Shown here one piece after another: positions 1,646 to 61,890 of a stretch of DNA of 64,000 nucleotides (its first letter is position 1; the number at the start of each line of letters is the position of its first letter). A model generated the notes under the pieces. That model did not search any database, was not told the origin of the DNA, and saw only the letters and a program-made list of their open reading frames with translations. Made by a program: the position numbers and the translations under genes. Origin of the DNA: Candidatus Bathyarchaeota archaeon (GTDB lineage: Archaea > Thermoproteota > Bathyarchaeia > Bathyarchaeales > Bathycorpusculaceae); the NCBI GenBank assembly GCA_963702095.1, contig OY969706.1, positions 2,080,001 through 2,144,000 of the forward strand, in the 5' to 3' direction.

Positions 1646-2484
1646 GCTTTTAGCTCCTTGGAGTCTTTAGATTTATTTTCGAAGAACAGGTGTATTCTTG
1701 AGGAATACTCGTTAGCTTCGTTCACTATCGGCGTAATTTGGGGTTTACCGACAATGGAGAGGGAAACATCTGCCTTGATTCCGTAGACAGCCTCGATATT
1801 TTGGGCCGTAATCACTTCTTCAGGGCTTCCCACCGCGTAAATACAGCCGCGTTTAAGCATAAGCAGCCGATCAGAAAAACGACTGGCTAAATTCAAGTCA
1901 TGCATACTGAGAATAATGGAGCGTTCTTTGCTTTGCGCTAAACCCTTCAGCAAACAGAGAATCTCAAGCTGATGTTTAATGTCAAGTGAACTTGTGGGTT
2001 CATCAAGAAGCAGAAGCTGCGGCTGCTGTGCTAGAGCACGAGCGATGATAACTTTTTGTTGCTCGCCGCCGCTGAGTTCAGTGAAATGGCGCATGGCAAG
2101 GTGGTCAATTCCTAAGAACTGCAGCATTTGAGCGACGATTTCGTTGTCACGTTCGCCGATGCTCCAGTGTATGTAGGGTTTTCTGCCCATCATTACGATG
2201 TCGAATACTGTGAAGGGGAAGGTGCTGGTTGAGCTTTGGGGGACATAACCCATTAGTTTGGATAATTCTTTGAGGTTGAGTTTGCTGGTGTCTTGGTCGT
2301 CAACGAGGATAGTGTTCTGTTTTGTTTTTAAAATGCGGTTAATGCATTTTAGCAGGGTGCTTTTGCCTGAACCGTTAGGGCCAATAATGGTTACTAACTC
2401 GCCCAGTCCAACGCTTAAATCGACGTCTTTTAGGACCTCAACTCCAGCGTAACTGAAGGATAGATCATTTATTGTCAGTTTCAA
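1633..2484 (-). CDS. Type II ABC importer ATPase (BtuD/FecE family)
   Basis: Walker A GPNGSGKS, LSGGEQQ signature, LLLLDEPT Walker B, MHDLNLA. Overlaps the cobN start. Confidence 0.95.
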   Translation of the reverse strand: MKLTINDLSFSYAGVEVLKDVDLSVGLGELVTIIGPNGSGKSTLLKCINRILKTKQNTILVDDQDTSKLNLKELSKLMGYVPQSSTSTFPFTVFDIVMMGRKPYIHWSIGERDNEIVAQMLQFLGIDHLAMRHFTELSGGEQQKVIIARALAQQPQLLLLDEPTSSLDIKHQLEILCLLKGLAQSKERSIILSMHDLNLASRFSDRLLMLKRGCIYAVGSPEEVITAQNIEAVYGIKADVSLSIVGKPQITPIVNEANEYSSRIHLFFENKSKDSKELKACPN

Positions 2485-10684: not shown

Positions 10685-11517
10685 TTAGAATTTACGGAGG
10701 TTTTTTGTGAGGACCGCCAGAGCTTCATCGTAAGTTATTGGCACCTCATCTATAACTCCCAATGCTTTGAGTTTACCGAAAAGCCGTGCTATCGAGGGCG
10801 GTTCAAGCCCTGCCGATTCAAGCAAATGTTCGTCTTGGAGAACCTTGTGCATTTCGCCCCCGCCAAGCAGCGAACCGTGGCTGACAACAACAACGCGGTC
10901 TGCAAGTTCAGGCAATGCCTCAACGTCGTGAGTGGAGATGACAATTGTGGTTCCTTCGGCGCTGAGTTCGTTAAGCAAGTCGATAAGCCCTCTTCTTGAC
11001 ACTAAATCCAAATTTGCAGTAGGCTCATCAAGGATTAGCAGTTCGGGTCTTAGAATCAGGGCGGTTGCCAGGGAGACTTTTTTCTTTTCTCCGAAGCTTA
11101 GCCTGTGGGGTGGGCGGTCTTTGAGGTGGCTTATGCCGATGTCTTCGAGGATGTGGTCGCATCTTTGGCTTATAACTTCAGGGGCTAATCCGAGGTTTTT
11201 GGGCCGTATTCTATGTCTTCTTTTACGCTGGGGGTGAAGAGTTGGTCGTCGGGGTCTTGGAAGACGATGCCTATGCGTGAGCGTAGTTTGGGGAAGTCCT
11301 TCGAAGTGGTTGGTTGACCGAACACTTTGATGTGGCCCTTACTTGGAGTCAGCAGCCCTGCTATGAGGAGAATCAGTGTGGATTTGCCTGAACCGTTAGG
11401 CCCTAGAATTGCGACTCGCTCGCCGGGCTTAATCTCAAGAGACACACCCTTCAGTGCACTGACGCCGGCTGGGTAAGAAAACTTTACATCTTCCACAGAG
11501 ACAATCGATTCGGTCAT
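10685..11517 (-). CDS. ECF ATPase NikO/CbiO (frameshift near 11195)
   Basis: GPNGSGKST and VFQDPDDQLF in ORF 11185-11517. LSFGEKKK, DEPTANLD and THDVE in the downstream frame. Confidence 0.85.
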
Positions 11518-11529
11518 GTACTGGGCCTT

Positions 11530-12343
11530 CTATGACAGCGCAAATAATGCAACAGTGATTATTAACGCTGACGCAAAAGCCACATCATAAACGTGGAAAG
11601 ACGGAAGTGAGGACTTGGCGCTTTTTTCTATCTCGAACCCACGGGCTTTCATGGCTAAATAGACCCGCTCCGAACGCTCGTAGGTGCGGATGAACAAAGT
11701 AGCTACTACTGATCCTAAATCTTTGAGGGCTTGCATATTGAACGTCTTTTTATGCACGTAGGTCCGGGCTTCTTTTGCTATTAAGACGCTTTGAGCCTCA
11801 TGGACAGATACAAAAAAGTACCGGTAAGTAAGGCTGAATAGTTGGACAATTACGCTAGGAACTCTCATGGCGGAGAGAAGCGCTAACATTTTGTCAAACC
11901 CTGTGGACAAAATCAGCGATATTAGGGATGCCACACAGAACCATACACGAACAGTGAAGACGGCAGCATTTGTCAGACCCTCGACAGTTACTGTTAGGTG
12001 CAGGCCGCCGAGGCTAGCTCGCCCAAATGGGGGTTCCTGCGGCAAAGAAGATGGGGGGTATTGAGAGCAATGCTGCTAAAGCTGTTACAAAAGCGGTTCT
12101 TACGAAAAAGTGCGTAAGCGGAATCCTCGATGAAACCGCTAACACAATTGGAATTATGCAAAGTATAAGCAGGTATGATAGGTTAAAAATAAAGAGGGAA
12201 GCCACAATCATCGCGACTACCGCTACCAGCTTGGCTAAGGGATTAATCGATTGCAAGAGGCCTTTTCTGTTGCTTAAGTCTTCTAAGTAAACTAGTGATT
12301 CTGCGCCTTCCATTAGGTCTCTTAGGGATTGCGGTGCCTTCAT
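11530..12343 (-). CDS. ECF T component NikQ/CbiQ (frameshift near 12030)
   Basis: GLLQSINPLAKL in the N-terminal ORF; LTYRY, AKEAR, AMKARGF in the C-terminal ORF. Confidence 0.85.
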
Positions 12344-12347
12344 ATGC

Positions 12348-12632
12348 TTAACTCTTTTTCCTGCCCAAGGCTTTAGCAACTGCGAAACCTACAATGAACA
12401 ACAACGCTGTTCCGCCTATGCCGATAATCAGTCCGCCTGTTGTACTATCGATGCCAGCGATTGAATAATCTGCGAATGGCGCCTCATAGACGGGTGATTC
12501 TTGTGCGCCGAGTTGTTCTGCTTTTACGTCAAGTGTCTCCATGGCGTAGGATAGGAAGAAAACGCCGATGAGGACAAAGATTATGGCTACTGTTAAACCC
12601 ACTATGATTGTTTTCTGGTTTTTAGTTACCAT
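12348..12632 (-). CDS. NikN-like (PDGLE-type) small membrane component
   Basis: TM-ETLD..AE..G..E..YEAPFADYSIAG-TM. Lies between the M and Q genes. Confidence 0.75.
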   Translation of the reverse strand: MVTKNQKTIIVGLTVAIIFVLIGVFFLSYAMETLDVKAEQLGAQESPVYEAPFADYSIAGIDSTTGGLIIGIGGTALLFIVGFAVAKALGRKKS

Positions 12633-12635
12633 TCC

Positions 12636-13324
12636 TTATGCCTCCACTGGTTGTTTGTTTTTGAACATGCTTAGTTTGCCTAAAATTGGGCTTCTTTCCA
12701 AGACATCAGGGCGCAGTTTGAATAATGTGCCAATGATGATCACTGAAACTATGCCCTCTGCCACGCCAATGATCGAGTGATTCAGCGCCATTGCGGGAAC
12801 TGCAATGCTTAAGCCGTATTGGAAGGTTGGTGTAGATAAGCCGAGTTCTGTGCCTGCTGAGATGGCTGCGAGCACGTCACCGACGAACGCTGATATGAAT
12901 ATTGTAACGAATATGCTGGTCATGGTTTTTAATTTGAAGACTTTGTTGGCTACTAAGAATATGATGCAGGGGACAAATATGCCGATTATGCCCATGTTGA
13001 GGACGTTTGCGCCTAGTGTTGTGAGTCCGCCGTCGCCGAAGAGGAAGGCTTGCAATACGAGGATTATGGTGATGGAGATGCAGCCTGCGAAGGGGCAGTA
13101 TGACGGCCGATGGTTGCGCCGCCGAGTAAGTGTGCTGTTGTTCCTCCGAGGATGGGGTAGTTCATCATCATTGCTGCGAAGAAGAGGGCTGTGAGTAGTC
13201 CCATTATGGGTATTTGTTGTTCTGTTAGTTTGCTTTTTTTGACTGATATTCCCCAGAATATGATTGTTATGATGAATGCGGGTATTATGACGTATAGTGT
13301 TAGGAATCCGTCTGGTATGTGCAT
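12636..13324 (-). CDS. nikM: Nickel-type ECF S component NikM (indels near 13060-13110)
   Basis: MHIPDG N-terminus, GTTAHLLGG, QAFLFGDGGLTTLGAN, H..IG.AEG are NikM-type signatures. Confidence 0.85.
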
Positions 13325-13347: not shown

Positions 13348-13375
13348 GTATTACGTTTGTTTAGAAAAGTGTTAC
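13348..13375. promoter_or_regulatory. NikR-like operator 1 (GTATTAC-N14-GTGTTAC) upstream of nikM
   Basis: Ends 24 bp upstream of the nikM ATG. Same spacing as three other copies. Confidence 0.7.
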
Positions 13376-13441: not shown

Positions 13442-13672
13442 ATGGTTGAAGCACTCACAAAAGAAAAACTCAAAGAAAGAGAATTAATCCGCATGTTCGA
13501 GCCCATAGAGGGCGAAATAAGCTTAATCAAAGCAAACGCAAAATTCAATCACACAGTAAATAAGACGCCTGAGCGGGAAACAAAGATTATTCTAGCCTAC
13601 GCCGAAGACACTCAACACCTTGTTCGCATCCTAAAAGAGAGGATAAAGCTGCTGTTGGATGCCACAAGCTAA
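13442..13672 (+). CDS. Small hypothetical helical protein (76 aa)
   Basis: ATG at 13442 within ORF 13319-13672. Coding-like composition, divergent from nikM. Confidence 0.45.
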   Translation: MVEALTKEKLKERELIRMFEPIEGEISLIKANAKFNHTVNKTPERETKIILAYAEDTQHLVRILKERIKLLLDATS

Positions 13673-13697
13673 CCTTGTCTACGGTGGCCAGATAATA

Positions 13698-13831
13698 GTT
13701 TTTGTTTTTTAGTGTTAGATGAAGCGGGGAGTCCTTTACTCTTCTTCTTGCTGCGGGGTTGGCATGCGGTTGCTTTTTGGTTTGGTTTGTGTGTTGGGTT
13801 GCTGGTTGGTTGTGGCTGGTTCCTCATGCGG
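13698..13831 (-). repeat. Intergenic repeat family B, copy 1
   Basis: Reverse complement reads ccacaaccaaccagcaaccc...aagaagaagagtaaagg...cttcatctaacactaaaaaac, similar to five other copies. Confidence 0.65.
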
Positions 13832-13892
13832 AGGGAACTTGTTTGGCTCTGTTCGAGAAGTATATTCCCCCCCCCCCCCACAAACACCTATA

Positions 13893-13920
13893 GTATTACT
13901 TATTTATAAAAAGGTAATAC
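13893..13920. promoter_or_regulatory. NikR-like operator 2, perfect GTATTAC-N14-GTAATAC, orphan
   Basis: Perfect half-site palindrome with TTTATAAA inside the spacer and TTATAT right after. No convincing protein gene starts here. Confidence 0.7.
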
Positions 13921-13958
13921 TTATATCTCTGCCGCACTTATGCATACAACGCAACTAA

Positions 13959-14130
13959 GCAGTCGGGAACAGTTAGTACTGCCCTACTAACGCAAAGCAA
14001 TCCCCTCCCGGTGCTGCGCCAAAACTGAACCTTTCGGTTGGCTGTAAACAACCGAAACCCCAAAAGGGCGATTAGGCAAACACCGCGACTTTTAACGCCT
14101 AATCGGGTTTCCTTGGCGCTTCGGGCTTCC
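13959..14130. ncRNA. Candidate structured non-coding element (multi-stem)
   Basis: Stems: gttagta/tactaac; gcgccaa(14016)/ttggcgc(14113) enclosing tttcggttg/caaccgaaa, ccc/ggg and cgattaggc/gcctaatcg. Confidence 0.45.
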
Positions 14131-14162
14131 AAAAAAATAGACAATTTGAAAAAAGTTAGCGG

Positions 14163-14937
14163 TCAAGCGAGAGGGGCTATAGGGATAATGTACGGACTTT
14201 TCCTGCTGTAGTTTATCTCTACTTCCACACCATAAACTAACCGTATGTTTTCAGCAGTTAAAACAGAAGAGGGATTGCCTGCAGCATAAATGTTGCCAGC
14301 CTGCATCATCATGATTCTGTCACAAAATCTCGAAGCCAGATTCAAGTCGTGAATTGCGATGACAGCGGATAAAGATTGTTTTGAAACGATTTCTCGGGTG
14401 AGACTCATAACTTCGAGTTGGTGTCTTATGTCTAAATTGCTTGTTGGTTCGTCAAGGAGGAGAACCTTTGCTTCTTGGGCTAAAGATCGGGCTATGAGAA
14501 CCCGCTGTTGCTCCCCGCCGCTGAGTTCAAAAAAGTTCCGCATTGCGATGTGTTCGATGTTGAGGGCTTTTAGGGCTGCCCATGCTTTCTGGCTGTCTTT
14601 TTCGCTGCCCGCCCAAGTAATGTGGGGTCTTCTACCCATCAAGACGATTTCGTAAACAGGAAGTCCTTCGGGGTTATCGACTGAGGTCTGAGGGACGTAT
14701 CCAAGGTGTTTGGCGACTTCGAGGCGGTTCATTTTTTTTATTGATTTGCCATCTAGCATTATTTTGCCTTGTGTTGGTTCGATGATTTTGTTTATACATT
14801 TGAGCAGGGTTGTTTTTCCTGAGCCGTCGGGCCTGGATTAGGCGTAGTACTTCTGAGTTTTTGAGTTCTAAGGAGATGCCTGCGAGTGTGGGGTTGCTGC
14901 GGTAGCTGAATGTTATGTCTTGTACGGTTATGTTCAT
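14163..14937 (-). CDS. Type II ABC importer ATPase (FecE-like), indels in the Walker A region
   Basis: MNITVQDITFSY..., disrupted GP.GSGKTT, LSGGEQQR, LLDEPTSNLD, IHDLNLA. Confidence 0.88.
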
Positions 14938-14980
14938 GGTGTTGTCTCGGTTAGGGTTTAGTCTTTTTTGTGGTATTTGA

Positions 14981-15008
14981 GTATTACTTTTCCAGCGTTT
15001 GGTAACAC
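14981..15008. promoter_or_regulatory. NikR-like operator 3 (GTATTAC-N14-GTAACAC)
   Basis: In the divergent promoter between the ATPase and binding-protein genes. Confidence 0.72.
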
Positions 15009-15017
15009 AACACATAA

Positions 15018-15045
15018 GTATTACATTTTTACAAAAAAGTAACAC
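15018..15045. promoter_or_regulatory. NikR-like operator 4 (GTATTAC-N14-GTAACAC)
   Basis: Ends 11 bp before the binding-protein ATG at 15057. Confidence 0.72.
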
Positions 15046-60606: not shown

Positions 60607-61890
60607 ATGGTTGATGTTTGGCTTCCCTACGGAAAAACAGACGTATGCGTCCGAATCCCGGCTCGAAACCTGCTTGGCACCATAGAGCCTAAAGAGAGGG
60701 CAGGCGTAACCGACCCAAAAGCCGAAGTAGATCGCGCACTAAAAGAACCCATCGGCACTAAACGTCTATCAGAAATCGCCAAACCCGAATCCAGAGTCAC
60801 CATCGTAGTCGACGACGCCACCCGCAACACCCCAAGCGAACATGTGCTACTGCCAGTGCTGGCTGAACTCAACAGCGTGGGCGTCAAAGACGAAAACATC
60901 ACAGTGATTTTTGGCTGCGGAACACACCGCGGAGTCACTCCCCAAGAAGCCCCCAAACTTATAGGGGAAGAAGCCTCAAAAAGGGTCAAAGCCATCAACC
61001 ATGATGCCGCAGCCGCTGACTTAGTCTACATCGGCACCACCAAAACATACAGCAACAAAGTGTTTGTGAACAAGGTGTTTGCCGACGCAGACGTTAGAGT
61101 GCTCTTAGGCGACGTGCAAATCCATTATTATTCGGGGTACGGGGGGGGCAGAAAAAGCGTGTTGCCAGCGGTGTCTGGTGCGGAGACCATCCGGCATAAC
61201 CACGCTTTGCTTGTTAACCCCAACGCCACTGCCGGCAACCTCGAAAATAACCCTGTACACATAGACATGACTGAAGCTGCTCGGTTAGCTAAAGTGGATT
61301 TCATCGTAAACGTGGTTGAGAATAAGAAGGGAGAGATCGTTAAGGCGTTTGCAGGCGATTTAGAGGCGGCATTCCTTGAAGCCGTGAAGCTGGTTGATGA
61401 ACTCTACAAGGTCAATGTTGACCGCCGCAGTGACATCATCGTGGTAAGCGCTGGCGGAAGCCCCTGGGACCTCACCCTTTACCAGGCGCTCAAAGGCATG
61501 GATGCTTCTTTGGACGCTGTTAAACGGGGAGGAGTTATCATTCTTGTCGCTGAATGCATCGAAGGCTACGGTAACCAAGTGTTCTATGAATGGATGACTC
61601 GACTGGGAGAAATTAAGGGGATGGAGCGTGAGGTTAAACGGAACTTTGCCATAGGCGGACAGCGAGCTTACTACCTGCTTAAGGCACTGCTAAACCACCA
61701 AATCATCCTCGTCTCTTCGATGCCTGATTTCTACGCTACCAGCATATTCAAGCTCAAAACTGCACGGGCAGTCAACGACGCCTTGAACGATGCATTGAAG
61801 GTGGCGGGTTCAGCGTCGCGTGTTTGGGCGATGCCGCAGGGCAGCAACACTTTGCCAGTTTACAAGTCACCTGAAGAAATTAAACAGTAA
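60607..61890 (+). CDS. larA: LarA-family nickel-pincer racemase/epimerase
   Basis: DD.TR, GTHR, NHD, HY.SGY.GGRKS.LP, NH, YQA.K. Confidence 0.9.
   Translation: MVDVWLPYGKTDVCVRIPARNLLGTIEPKERAGVTDPKAEVDRALKEPIGTKRLSEIAKPESRVTIVVDDATRNTPSEHVLLPVLAELNSVGVKDENITVIFGCGTHRGVTPQEAPKLIGEEASKRVKAINHDAAAADLVYIGTTKTYSNKVFVNKVFADADVRVLLGDVQIHYYSGYGGGRKSVLPAVSGAETIRHNHALLVNPNATAGNLENNPVHIDMTEAARLAKVDFIVNVVENKKGEIVKAFAGDLEAAFLEAVKLVDELYKVNVDRRSDIIVVSAGGSPWDLTLYQALKGMDASLDAVKRGGVIILVAECIEGYGNQVFYEWMTRLGEIKGMEREVKRNFAIGGQRAYYLLKALLNHQIILVSSMPDFYATSIFKLKTARAVNDALNDALKVAGSASRVWAMPQGSNTLPVYKSPEEIKQ

Follow-up and report, generated by a model that had tools for sequence, protein, structure and literature searches.

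The 64,000-nt stretch analyzed here (the window) covers positions 2,080,001 to 2,144,000 of the 2.94-Mb single-contig genome of a “Candidatus Bathyarchaeota” archaeon, labelled G000. Within it, an operator of the NikR type, a TATA box and a folded element of about 170 nucleotides (nt) lie together in an intergenic region. Our comparison of this locus with its relatives suggests that the element is a structured non-coding RNA of a new family, about 170 to 180 nt long, which probably belongs to the nickel regulon of Bathyarchaeia, is repressed by NikR, and acts in trans. This reading is favored by what the comparison shows, namely, a conserved unit, a conserved structure, a match to the NikR box, a regulon context, and a stand-alone arrangement. 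Among the regulatory RNAs seen in archaea, it may be the first that responds to nickel. A literature search returned no nickel-responsive archaeal small RNA (sRNA) and no study of non-coding RNAs in Bathyarchaeia, only work on NikS of Helicobacter pylori and unrelated papers; in one apparent match, “Nickel” was the name of an author.

The first-pass annotation of this DNA had described the only perfect operator as lying between convergent genes, containing TTTATAAA and being followed by TTATAT. A direct reading and a genome-wide scan bear this out: the mismatch-free palindrome occurs only at 13893-13920 in the 2.94 Mb, TTTATAAA lies inside it at 13906-13913, and the operator and the RNA sit between a plus-strand gene ending at 13672 and a minus-strand ATP-binding cassette (ABC) ATPase gene ending at 14163. 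With up to three mismatches allowed, the palindrome has eight matches in the window versus 1.43 expected, a number reached in none of 100 shuffles; copies with zero to two mismatches start at 13348, 13893, 14981, and 15018. A strict box pattern (GT[AG][ATG][CT]AC, 13 or 14 nt, and the same half-site) finds five sites in the whole genome, four of them at the RNA locus and the fifth, at genome position 1355434, upstream of a second Peripla_BP_2/FecCD operon. The same box thus fronts nickel uptake genes and is rare elsewhere in the genome, which is the distribution sought of a regulon.

The published NikR signal, GTGTTAC-N13/14-GTAACAC, was predicted upstream of nikMNQO operons in delta-proteobacteria, and the site table includes GTaTTAC-N13-GTAACAC as well as sites with reversed half-sites (PMC545781). 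The consensus of the palindromes at our locus equals this delta-proteobacterial signal. G000 encodes two NikR_C proteins elsewhere in its genome, both above the cut-off and one also matching RHH_1, and a NikR_C gene is present in 110 of 120 genomes of the genus. Because the consensus matches the published signal and G000 has two NikR_C genes, we read the palindrome as a NikR box.

The fold begins about 40 nt downstream of the operator and consists of two domains, the second of which is a four-way junction (Table 1). An element of about 170 nt with nested stems in two such domains had been sketched at first sight of the sequence; all the stems named then are present, and the minimum-free-energy fold reproduces them and adds a helix, P1a, that closes the junction. 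In this junction, which has no unpaired bases, GCGCCAA/UUGGCGC (P1) and GAACC/GGUUU (P1a) close three hairpins. The fold energy is -66.8 kcal/mol (z = -3.17; 0 of 200 shuffles fold as well), and the opposite strand folds with z = -2.94. Only G000 and its nearest relative have the gcag/ctgc stem and the gttagta hairpin in its exact form; the other helices are kept across the family. A repeat dispersed over the genome, named at the outset as a finding that would speak against the element, is not what we see, because the RNA is single copy in G000; genomes of the genus have at most two copies each.

BLAST searches found the element in 4 of 24 genomes of the same genus and in none of 16 from other families within the order. 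An exact-pattern scan of GTDB species genomes returned the same four loci, and the same kind of scan of JGI metagenomes added six contigs. The box, TTATAT, and the RNA align as one unit in all 11 loci (five from genomes, including G000, and six from metagenomes), while alignment is lost in the approximately 30 nt that separate the TATA box from the RNA and in the flanking sequence. A covariance model built from these 11 seed loci (R1) yielded 29 matches to the RNA, spread over 25 of 120 genus genomes, and a second model (R2) was built from 35 copies. Neither model had a match outside G000 in the same 150 genomes drawn across the class; in 150 genomes of the family, R2 added three matches from two other genera, all of a box-less type (see below). 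A degenerate pattern scan of IMG/VR returned eight stretches, none of them a family member by R1, with one hairpin-only match, and a viral origin was rejected since there was no true family member among the eight.

The RNA matches no described family. Rfam 15 (4227 models) gave no match at the gathering score on the whole window. With E values up to 10 on positions 13650 to 14250, only the long non-coding RNA FAS-AS1 matched over the RNA, at chance level (E 9.8), and with E values up to 1 on 20 family loci, only mir-70 did, likewise at chance level (E 0.14), over the RNA copy of locus L026. The models named in the first-pass annotation, those of the NiCo (czcD) riboswitch (RF02683) and the cobalamin riboswitches, had no match in either search. 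The location expected of a NiCo riboswitch, the 5' leader of a metal efflux or homeostasis gene, is not seen either, since the next gene is convergent in G000 and at 18 other loci.

The homologue search and covariation analysis called for at first reading did yield a family. For covariation, the 35 sense matches were aligned to R1 (34 distinct rows), and as a control, the 3' partners were slid by one to three columns. Standard pairs fill 92.4% of the cells versus 26 to 49% after sliding; compensatory changes on both sides occur at 31 of 39 pairs versus at most 14; and the covariation score is 0.272 versus at most 0.072. None of 500 shuffles reached the observed values of pairing and covariation. 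By helix, compensatory changes affect six of seven pairs of helix 1 (domain 1; 91.6% of cells paired), six of eight pairs of helix 2 (P1; 93.5%), and three of five pairs of helix 3 (P1a; 96.1%). Variation or loss in some copies affects the insert of domain 1, the P3 loop, and the distal portion of P4; the pairs on either side of the junction rank with the most conserved positions. Because indels between close relatives are not multiples of three and the two overlapping mechanical open reading frames (ORFs), at 13938-14144 (minus strand) and 14038-14211 (plus strand), have no Pfam match, a coding reading is excluded on the pattern of sequence change.

The apical 10-mer of P2, GGCUGUAAAC, is nearly invariant in the 35 copies. 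Its mean predicted unpaired probability is 0.91, compared with 0.39 for the whole RNA, and the loop is a likely recognition element. Pairing of the loop with the GCAGUCC motif of domain 1 was weighed by eye; the loop never varies, and G000 is mismatched there.

Within -150 to +45 of the model match, a strict-pattern box is found at the RNA in 24 of the 35 copies. In 19 of these, the box is followed directly by TTATAT, as in G000. At five loci (L015 and L029 to L032), the order is TATA box, 3 to 4 nt, NikR box, and RNA, the downstream box being the only strict one, and L018 and L038 have both arrangements. The box of L026, recognized by eye, follows the TATA box and lies inside a mis-modelled 5' part; boxes with one mismatch are present at L035, L036, L046, and L044, and L016 is cut by the contig end inside its box. 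With near-matches and the cut copy counted, about 29 to 30 of the 35 copies are boxed. Those without a box are L033, L040, and L041, which belong to the box-less branch, as well as L042 and L043; in L043, the RNA directly follows the cbiN stop codon.

Eighteen loci have a recognizable domain 1; in these, the distance from the start of TTATAT to the first helix is 35 to 42 nt, and in 16 of them it is 39 to 42 nt, so that the RNA has its own promoter at a fixed distance. Because this distance stays constant whichever side the box lies on, TTATAT, judged by its position, is the TATA box; the A/T-rich spacer TTTATAAA inside the palindrome is not conserved. The usual archaeal spacing from TATA box to start, applied to TTATAT, places the predicted transcription start at about 13947 to 13952, some 10 to 15 nt before domain 1. 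Archaeal repressors exclude TBP/TFB or RNA polymerase from the position of the B recognition element (BRE) or from the start site. The NikR box lies on the BRE side or over the predicted start, and by extension to this RNA, its location argues for repression. If affinity follows symmetry, the RNA, which carries the only perfect box of the genome, would be under the tightest repression of any regulon member.

The RNA appears to be a gene in its own right. Downstream genes were called by reading tables of mechanical ORFs (at least 75 amino acids [aa]) together with Pfam. At the 35 loci, the next downstream ORF is convergent in 19 cases and co-directional in 14, and a contig end intervenes in two. 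The co-directional genes have unrelated functions (nikR twice, OsmC, deoxyhypusine synthase, SUI1, a unit of thiamine pyrophosphate [TPP] riboswitch and ThiT, and others). Because no gene is consistently downstream, the RNA is best taken as a stand-alone gene and a role as leader or riboswitch is unlikely; we rejected the cis-regulatory reading on these counts. Genes of nickel regulation and uptake are frequent around it: nikR lies in the RNA locus in 6 of 35 cases (L006, L016, L017, L037, L039, and L047), CbiM/N/Q genes in 8, and Peripla_BP_2/FecCD genes in 6 (the identical loci L035 and L036 counted separately), with at least one of the three at 18 of the 35 loci.

Table 1. Features of the RNA locus of G000 (positions in the window) and box-less relatives (positions in the named locus)
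Feature	Position	Strand	Remarks
NikR-type operator	13893-13920	.	Perfect palindrome GTATTAC-N14-GTAATAC; right half-site abuts TATA box, at BRE position
TATA box of RNA gene, TTATAT	13921-13926	+	Directly 3' of palindrome
Second NikR-type box	13348-13375	.	Two mismatches; followed by TTTATAT; between divergent cbiM and small-protein gene
Two tandem NikR-type boxes	14981-15008, 15018-15045	.	One mismatch each; between ABC ATPase and Peripla_BP_2/FecCD importer genes
Structured non-coding RNA (putative)	13957-14122	+	Match to model R1, 142.5 bits; 3' end undefined
Stem gcag/ctgc	13959-13962 with 14014-14017	+	
Domain 1	13963-14011	+	Stem UCGGGA/UCCCGG around variable insert; in G000, insert is hairpin 13972-13991
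Stem (t)cggga/tcccg(g)	13963-13968 with 14006-14011	+	
Stem gttagta/tactaac	13972-13978 with 13985-13991	+	
Domain 2	14016-14119	+	Four-way junction of P1/P1a, P2, P3, and P4
P1 stem gcgccaa/ttggcgc	14016-14022 with 14113-14119	+	
P1a stem gaacc/ggttt	14027-14031 with 14106-14110	+	
P2 hairpin	14032-14057	+	Covarying stem; apical 10-mer GGCUGUAAAC at 14040-14049
P2 stem tttcggttg/caaccgaaa	14032-14040 with 14049-14057	+	
P3 mini-hairpin	14058-14068	+	
P3 stem ccc/ggg	14058-14060 with 14066-14068	+	
P4 hairpin	14069-14105	+	Distal part variable or deleted in some relatives
P4 stem cgattaggc/gcctaatcg	14069-14077 with 14097-14105	+	
Ni/Co importer genes of the energy-coupling factor (ECF) type, cbiM/cbiQ/cbiO type (nikMNQO-like)	11185-13324	-	Pfam CbiM, CbiQ, and ABC_tran on fragments
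Small-protein gene	13442-13672	+	76 aa; predicted helical hairpin; own NikR-type box (13348-13375) and TATA box
Convergent ABC ATPase gene	14163-15045	-	Two ORFs in G000; orthologue intact, 257 aa
Box-less copy, L033	1501-1660	-	
Box-less copy, L040	1501-1630	-	
Box-less copy, L041	1501-1589	+	
Box-less copy, L088	1501-1664	+	
Box-less copy, L089	1501-1614	+	
Box-less copy, L090	1501-1670	+	

We propose that, when nickel is sufficient, Ni-NikR would sit on the box and block the access of TBP/TFB or RNA polymerase to the RNA promoter. When nickel is scarce, the RNA would be made along with the Ni/Co ECF importer, two FecCD-type importers, and a small helical protein, all under the same box. It would then act in trans and not on a neighboring gene. 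The rigid four-way-junction scaffold would present the exposed loop GGCUGUAAAC, which would recognize a partner (an mRNA or a protein) and so adjust the nickel economy of the cell. The first-pass annotation had proposed a NikR-repressed sRNA that spares nickel in the manner of RyhB, or else a metal-binding RNA. The part that concerns a stand-alone small RNA gene under a NikR-type operator has strong support from the comparison; the RyhB-like target logic finds no support, the complementarity to mRNAs of Ni enzymes not rising above background.

Several observations weigh against the proposal. (i) The exact complement of the 10-nt loop occurs at five sites in the genome, all inside long ORFs, which by our estimate is about the chance number for a 10-mer in this genome. 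A duplex scan around all ORF starts was featureless, with 3857 windows at or below -13 kcal/mol, and the starts of seven Ni-enzyme genes (three [NiFe] hydrogenase large subunits, two of carbon monoxide dehydrogenase [CODH] type, CdhC, and LarA) were not outliers, the best background percentile being 0.039 after several start codons were tried. Complements of 7 or 8 nt of the loop were absent from 41 tRNAs and the 5S rRNA, and the rRNA operon region had one 7-mer, twice. (ii) Of 120 genomes of the genus, 110 encode NikR but 95 have no match to the RNA; therefore, judging by gene content, it is not a core part of nickel homeostasis. (iii) The alignment behind the strongest covariation figures was fitted to R1, and for this reason an independent count was made on MAFFT-only alignments. 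Among the 11 seeds, 95.1% of cells pair versus 28 to 53% after sliding, with 8 compensatory pairs versus 0 to 3; among 29 divergent copies, P2 alone was recovered, with CG-to-UA and GC-to-AU exchanges. (iv) G-U combinations exceed A-C combinations in the helices only modestly (61 versus 40), and because such counts are weakly informative, the assignment of the strand rests mainly on the promoter. (v) A run of at least five T's within 60 nt downstream is found at 10 of 35 loci, and there is no consistent terminator. A run of at least five A's within 45 nt after the RNA is found at 20 of 35 loci, also where there is no convergent gene. In G000, the T run of the ABC ATPase gene (A7 on the plus strand, 14131-14137) lies just after the RNA; some of the downstream A runs are, as here, terminators of convergent genes.

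To these points is added (vi) a branch of six copies (L033, L040, L041, L088, L089, and L090), from at least three genera (genomes G072, G090, G048, G316, G393, and G373), that share the core of the RNA and have no box. The shared core comprises P1, P1a, P2 with the loop GGCUG-AAAC, and P3, and P4 is reduced in some copies. Upstream of it is a conserved GCGGGRCUGAUAUGCGUCCCUC-like hairpin, and downstream are an A8 run and a GUUGCCCU...AGGGCAAC hairpin. Tyrosine recombinase genes lie beside L033, L040, and L088, the ORF of the recombinase extending into the RNA in L088. The box-less copies may serve as a target for integration, or a mobile element may carry them as one of its RNAs. Because these six family members lack the box, the core fold is not intrinsically tied to nickel and predates or outlives its nickel wiring. 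This branch lowers confidence in a nickel-specific activity of the RNA and leaves untouched the evidence for box control of the copy in the window.

Because the elaborate, junction-centered conservation would suit binding of a protein or of a ligand as well, both were kept as rivals of the trans-acting regulatory RNA. The RNA could be a scaffold or decoy whose loop is a site for a protein (an RNA-binding protein, a nuclease, or the small helical protein) and pairs with no mRNA. A near-invariant 10-nt loop on a covarying stem, the lack of any complementary target found, and a small-protein gene beside the RNA in 7 of the 13 genomes having both are what such a scaffold would predict; we nevertheless hold it to be unlikely, as the small protein has no recognizable RNA-binding fold and no PDB match at an E value of 0.001, as 12 of 25 RNA genomes lack the protein (with this query) and 16 of 29 protein genomes lack the RNA, and as no other candidate partner was found. 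Rather more doubtful is an RNA in which junction and loop form a pocket for Ni2+, Co2+, or a nickel compound, which it would sense, buffer, or hand over in trans, or use to control its own read-through. The pairs flanking the junction are highly conserved, which is more typical of aptamers than of base-pairing sRNAs, the RNA stands in the nickel regulon with no consistent terminator after it, and according to the available parts of two sources, the Ni/Co (czcD) and Mn2+ (yybP-ykoY) riboswitches are built on four-way junctions (10.1101/2025.08.02.668262, PMC6754395). Yet the RNA resembles no Rfam riboswitch, the NiCo and cobalamin ones included, and has no consistent downstream gene to control; the sequence of the P1/P1a internal loop is not conserved; and a metal-binding RNA made only under metal scarcity has no obvious logic. 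No less doubtful is the related idea of a trans-acting aptamer for Ni/Co or a nickel cofactor, that is, a NikR-repressed RNA that would sense, chaperone, or ration nickel or titrate a nickel-handling protein.

The box-less branch lends itself to another explanation, in which the RNA belongs to a mobile element or is an integration target, its nickel-regulated copies being a secondary recruitment and its core function being unrelated to nickel. The six copies in at least three genera, the three neighboring recombinase genes, and the recombinase ORF that enters the RNA of L088 are in line with this, but we rate it as very unlikely for the family at large: about 29 of the 35 genus copies are boxed, no recombinase occurs in the scanned flanks of box-bearing loci, and the IMG/VR pattern scan yielded no true family member. 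Nor would it conflict with nickel control of the copy in the window. That there is no functional RNA at all is hard to credit; the conserved stretch would then be a signal at the DNA level, what is left of a decayed coding sequence, or the transcriptional side product of a bidirectional promoter under NikR. Mechanical ORFs do overlap the region; however, they have no Pfam match, indels are not multiples of a triplet, and the helices are maintained, as the sequence drifts, by compensatory double changes at 31 of 39 pairs.

Around the RNA of G000, the genes of the cbiM, cbiQ, cbiO-like, and ABC ATPase proteins are each split into at least two ORFs, whereas the orthologues in genome G007 are intact; this points to frameshifts, which arose through homopolymer errors in the assembly or through real decay. 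A run of 13 C's (13867-13879) lies just upstream of the box, and a G/T-rich low-complexity stretch of about 180 nt (13712-13890) fills the space between the terminator of the small-protein gene and the box. The closest relative lacks this stretch and has a gap of about 80 nt there. The small protein belongs to a family of 76 to 88 aa, members of which are encoded in 29 of the 120 genus genomes, frequently next to cbiM, nikR, or the RNA. It co-occurs with the RNA in 13 genomes (RNA in 25, protein in 29). At 6 of the first 11 loci, its gene precedes the RNA in the same orientation, but at L009 and L017 it is not the immediate neighbor. An AlphaFold2 model shows a two-helix hairpin (predicted local distance difference test [pLDDT] score, 92.4). 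Searches of Pfam and NCBIfam assigned no family, and Foldseek against the PDB gave nothing at E values up to 0.001, only generic helical hairpins. As a plain helical hairpin with no family or PDB relative and with partial co-occurrence, the small protein was rejected as an RNA-binding partner.

Some further observations concern individual loci. In L026, a TPP riboswitch (RF00059, 70.3 bits; 1768-1880, plus strand) lies just downstream of the RNA copy and fronts a gene for a Thia_YuaJ thiamine transporter (ThiT) and an AIR-synthase-related gene. L009 (identical to L006) is a contig of 2191 nt with nikR, the small-protein gene, and the RNA, and is titled “Candidatus Acidoferrum sp.”; genome G009 is placed in the genus of G000 and is 56% complete, and either a wrong label on the public record or an error in binning may be the reason. 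G005 and G007 each have a second RNA copy, situated downstream of a gene for a conserved protein of 246 to 248 aa without a family. Near these copies are a divergent gene for a 228-aa membrane protein and a gene for a SPASM-domain radical SAM protein (L005/L010, 551-1291 on the minus strand and 1300-1986 on the plus strand; equivalents in L008/L011). A LarA (Lar_N) gene lies in the window at about 60628-61233 (plus strand), about 47 kb from the RNA, and in L025 a LarB-like AIRC-domain gene is the convergent neighbor of the RNA.

In bacteria, sRNAs made under metal starvation and controlled by a metal-sensing repressor are a classic theme. The RyhB/PrrF-type sRNAs are repressed by Fur, spare iron, and are needed only under metal starvation, and NikS, a simple base-pairing sRNA with a variable repeat, is repressed by NikR. 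As in RyhB and PrrF, the metal-loaded repressor is proposed here to shut off the RNA; these sRNAs differ in being bacterial, Hfq dependent, and simple in structure, and here the starts of the Ni-enzyme mRNAs have no outstanding complementarity. We regard NikS as the closest functional analogue and sRNA154 of Methanosarcina mazei as the closest archaeal one. Like the Bathyarchaeia RNA, NikS (IsoB/HPnc4160) of H. pylori is described as a small RNA gene under the nickel sensor NikR and forms a post-transcriptional arm of its regulon (PMC8035401, PMC5385501). It is bacterial and has no detectable relation in sequence or structure to the Bathyarchaeia RNA, which has two domains and a four-way junction. 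sRNA154 is likewise an archaeal stand-alone intergenic sRNA with a repressor palindrome in its promoter and is made only under nutrient limitation (PMC3177094). It differs in its regulator (NrpRI), its operator (GGTA-N6-TACC), and its nutrient (nitrogen), is an unrelated RNA from a different phylum, and has experimental support, whereas the Bathyarchaeia RNA is predicted here from sequence comparison.

The delta-proteobacterial NikR regulons share with our locus the half-sites, their spacing, and the inverted-repeat layout before nikMNQO-type transporters; as described in the available portion of the source, they consist of protein-coding operons only, whereas the member with the best box is here an RNA gene (PMC545781). 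With the NiCo (czcD) and yybP-ykoY RNAs, the likeness, as far as the sources at hand describe them, is that of metal-homeostasis RNAs on a four-way junction and is a structural echo only. Those are bacterial cis-acting leaders of efflux or homeostasis genes; the Bathyarchaeia RNA is a separate gene and, unlike them, is predicted to be made under metal shortage and not under excess. The RNA family appears to be new, and its regulatory kind is one already known, of which it would be a new variant.

G000 encodes CODH/acetyl-CoA synthase, [NiFe] hydrogenases, and LarA. The Bathyarchaeia, which are abundant and uncultured, depend on nickel enzymes for their carbon and hydrogen metabolism. For this biology, the locus is a clean, testable case, with a perfect NikR box, a defined promoter, a covarying fold of 170 nt, and one near-invariant loop. 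Box-less relatives near integrases raise the evolutionary question of how an RNA module gets wired into a regulon. If the aptamer reading were true, a riboswitch-like sensor would exist as a free-standing archaeal gene. The RNA is far more elaborate than typical base-pairing sRNAs, and recognition through its junction or loop could reveal a new coupling of metal to gene expression.

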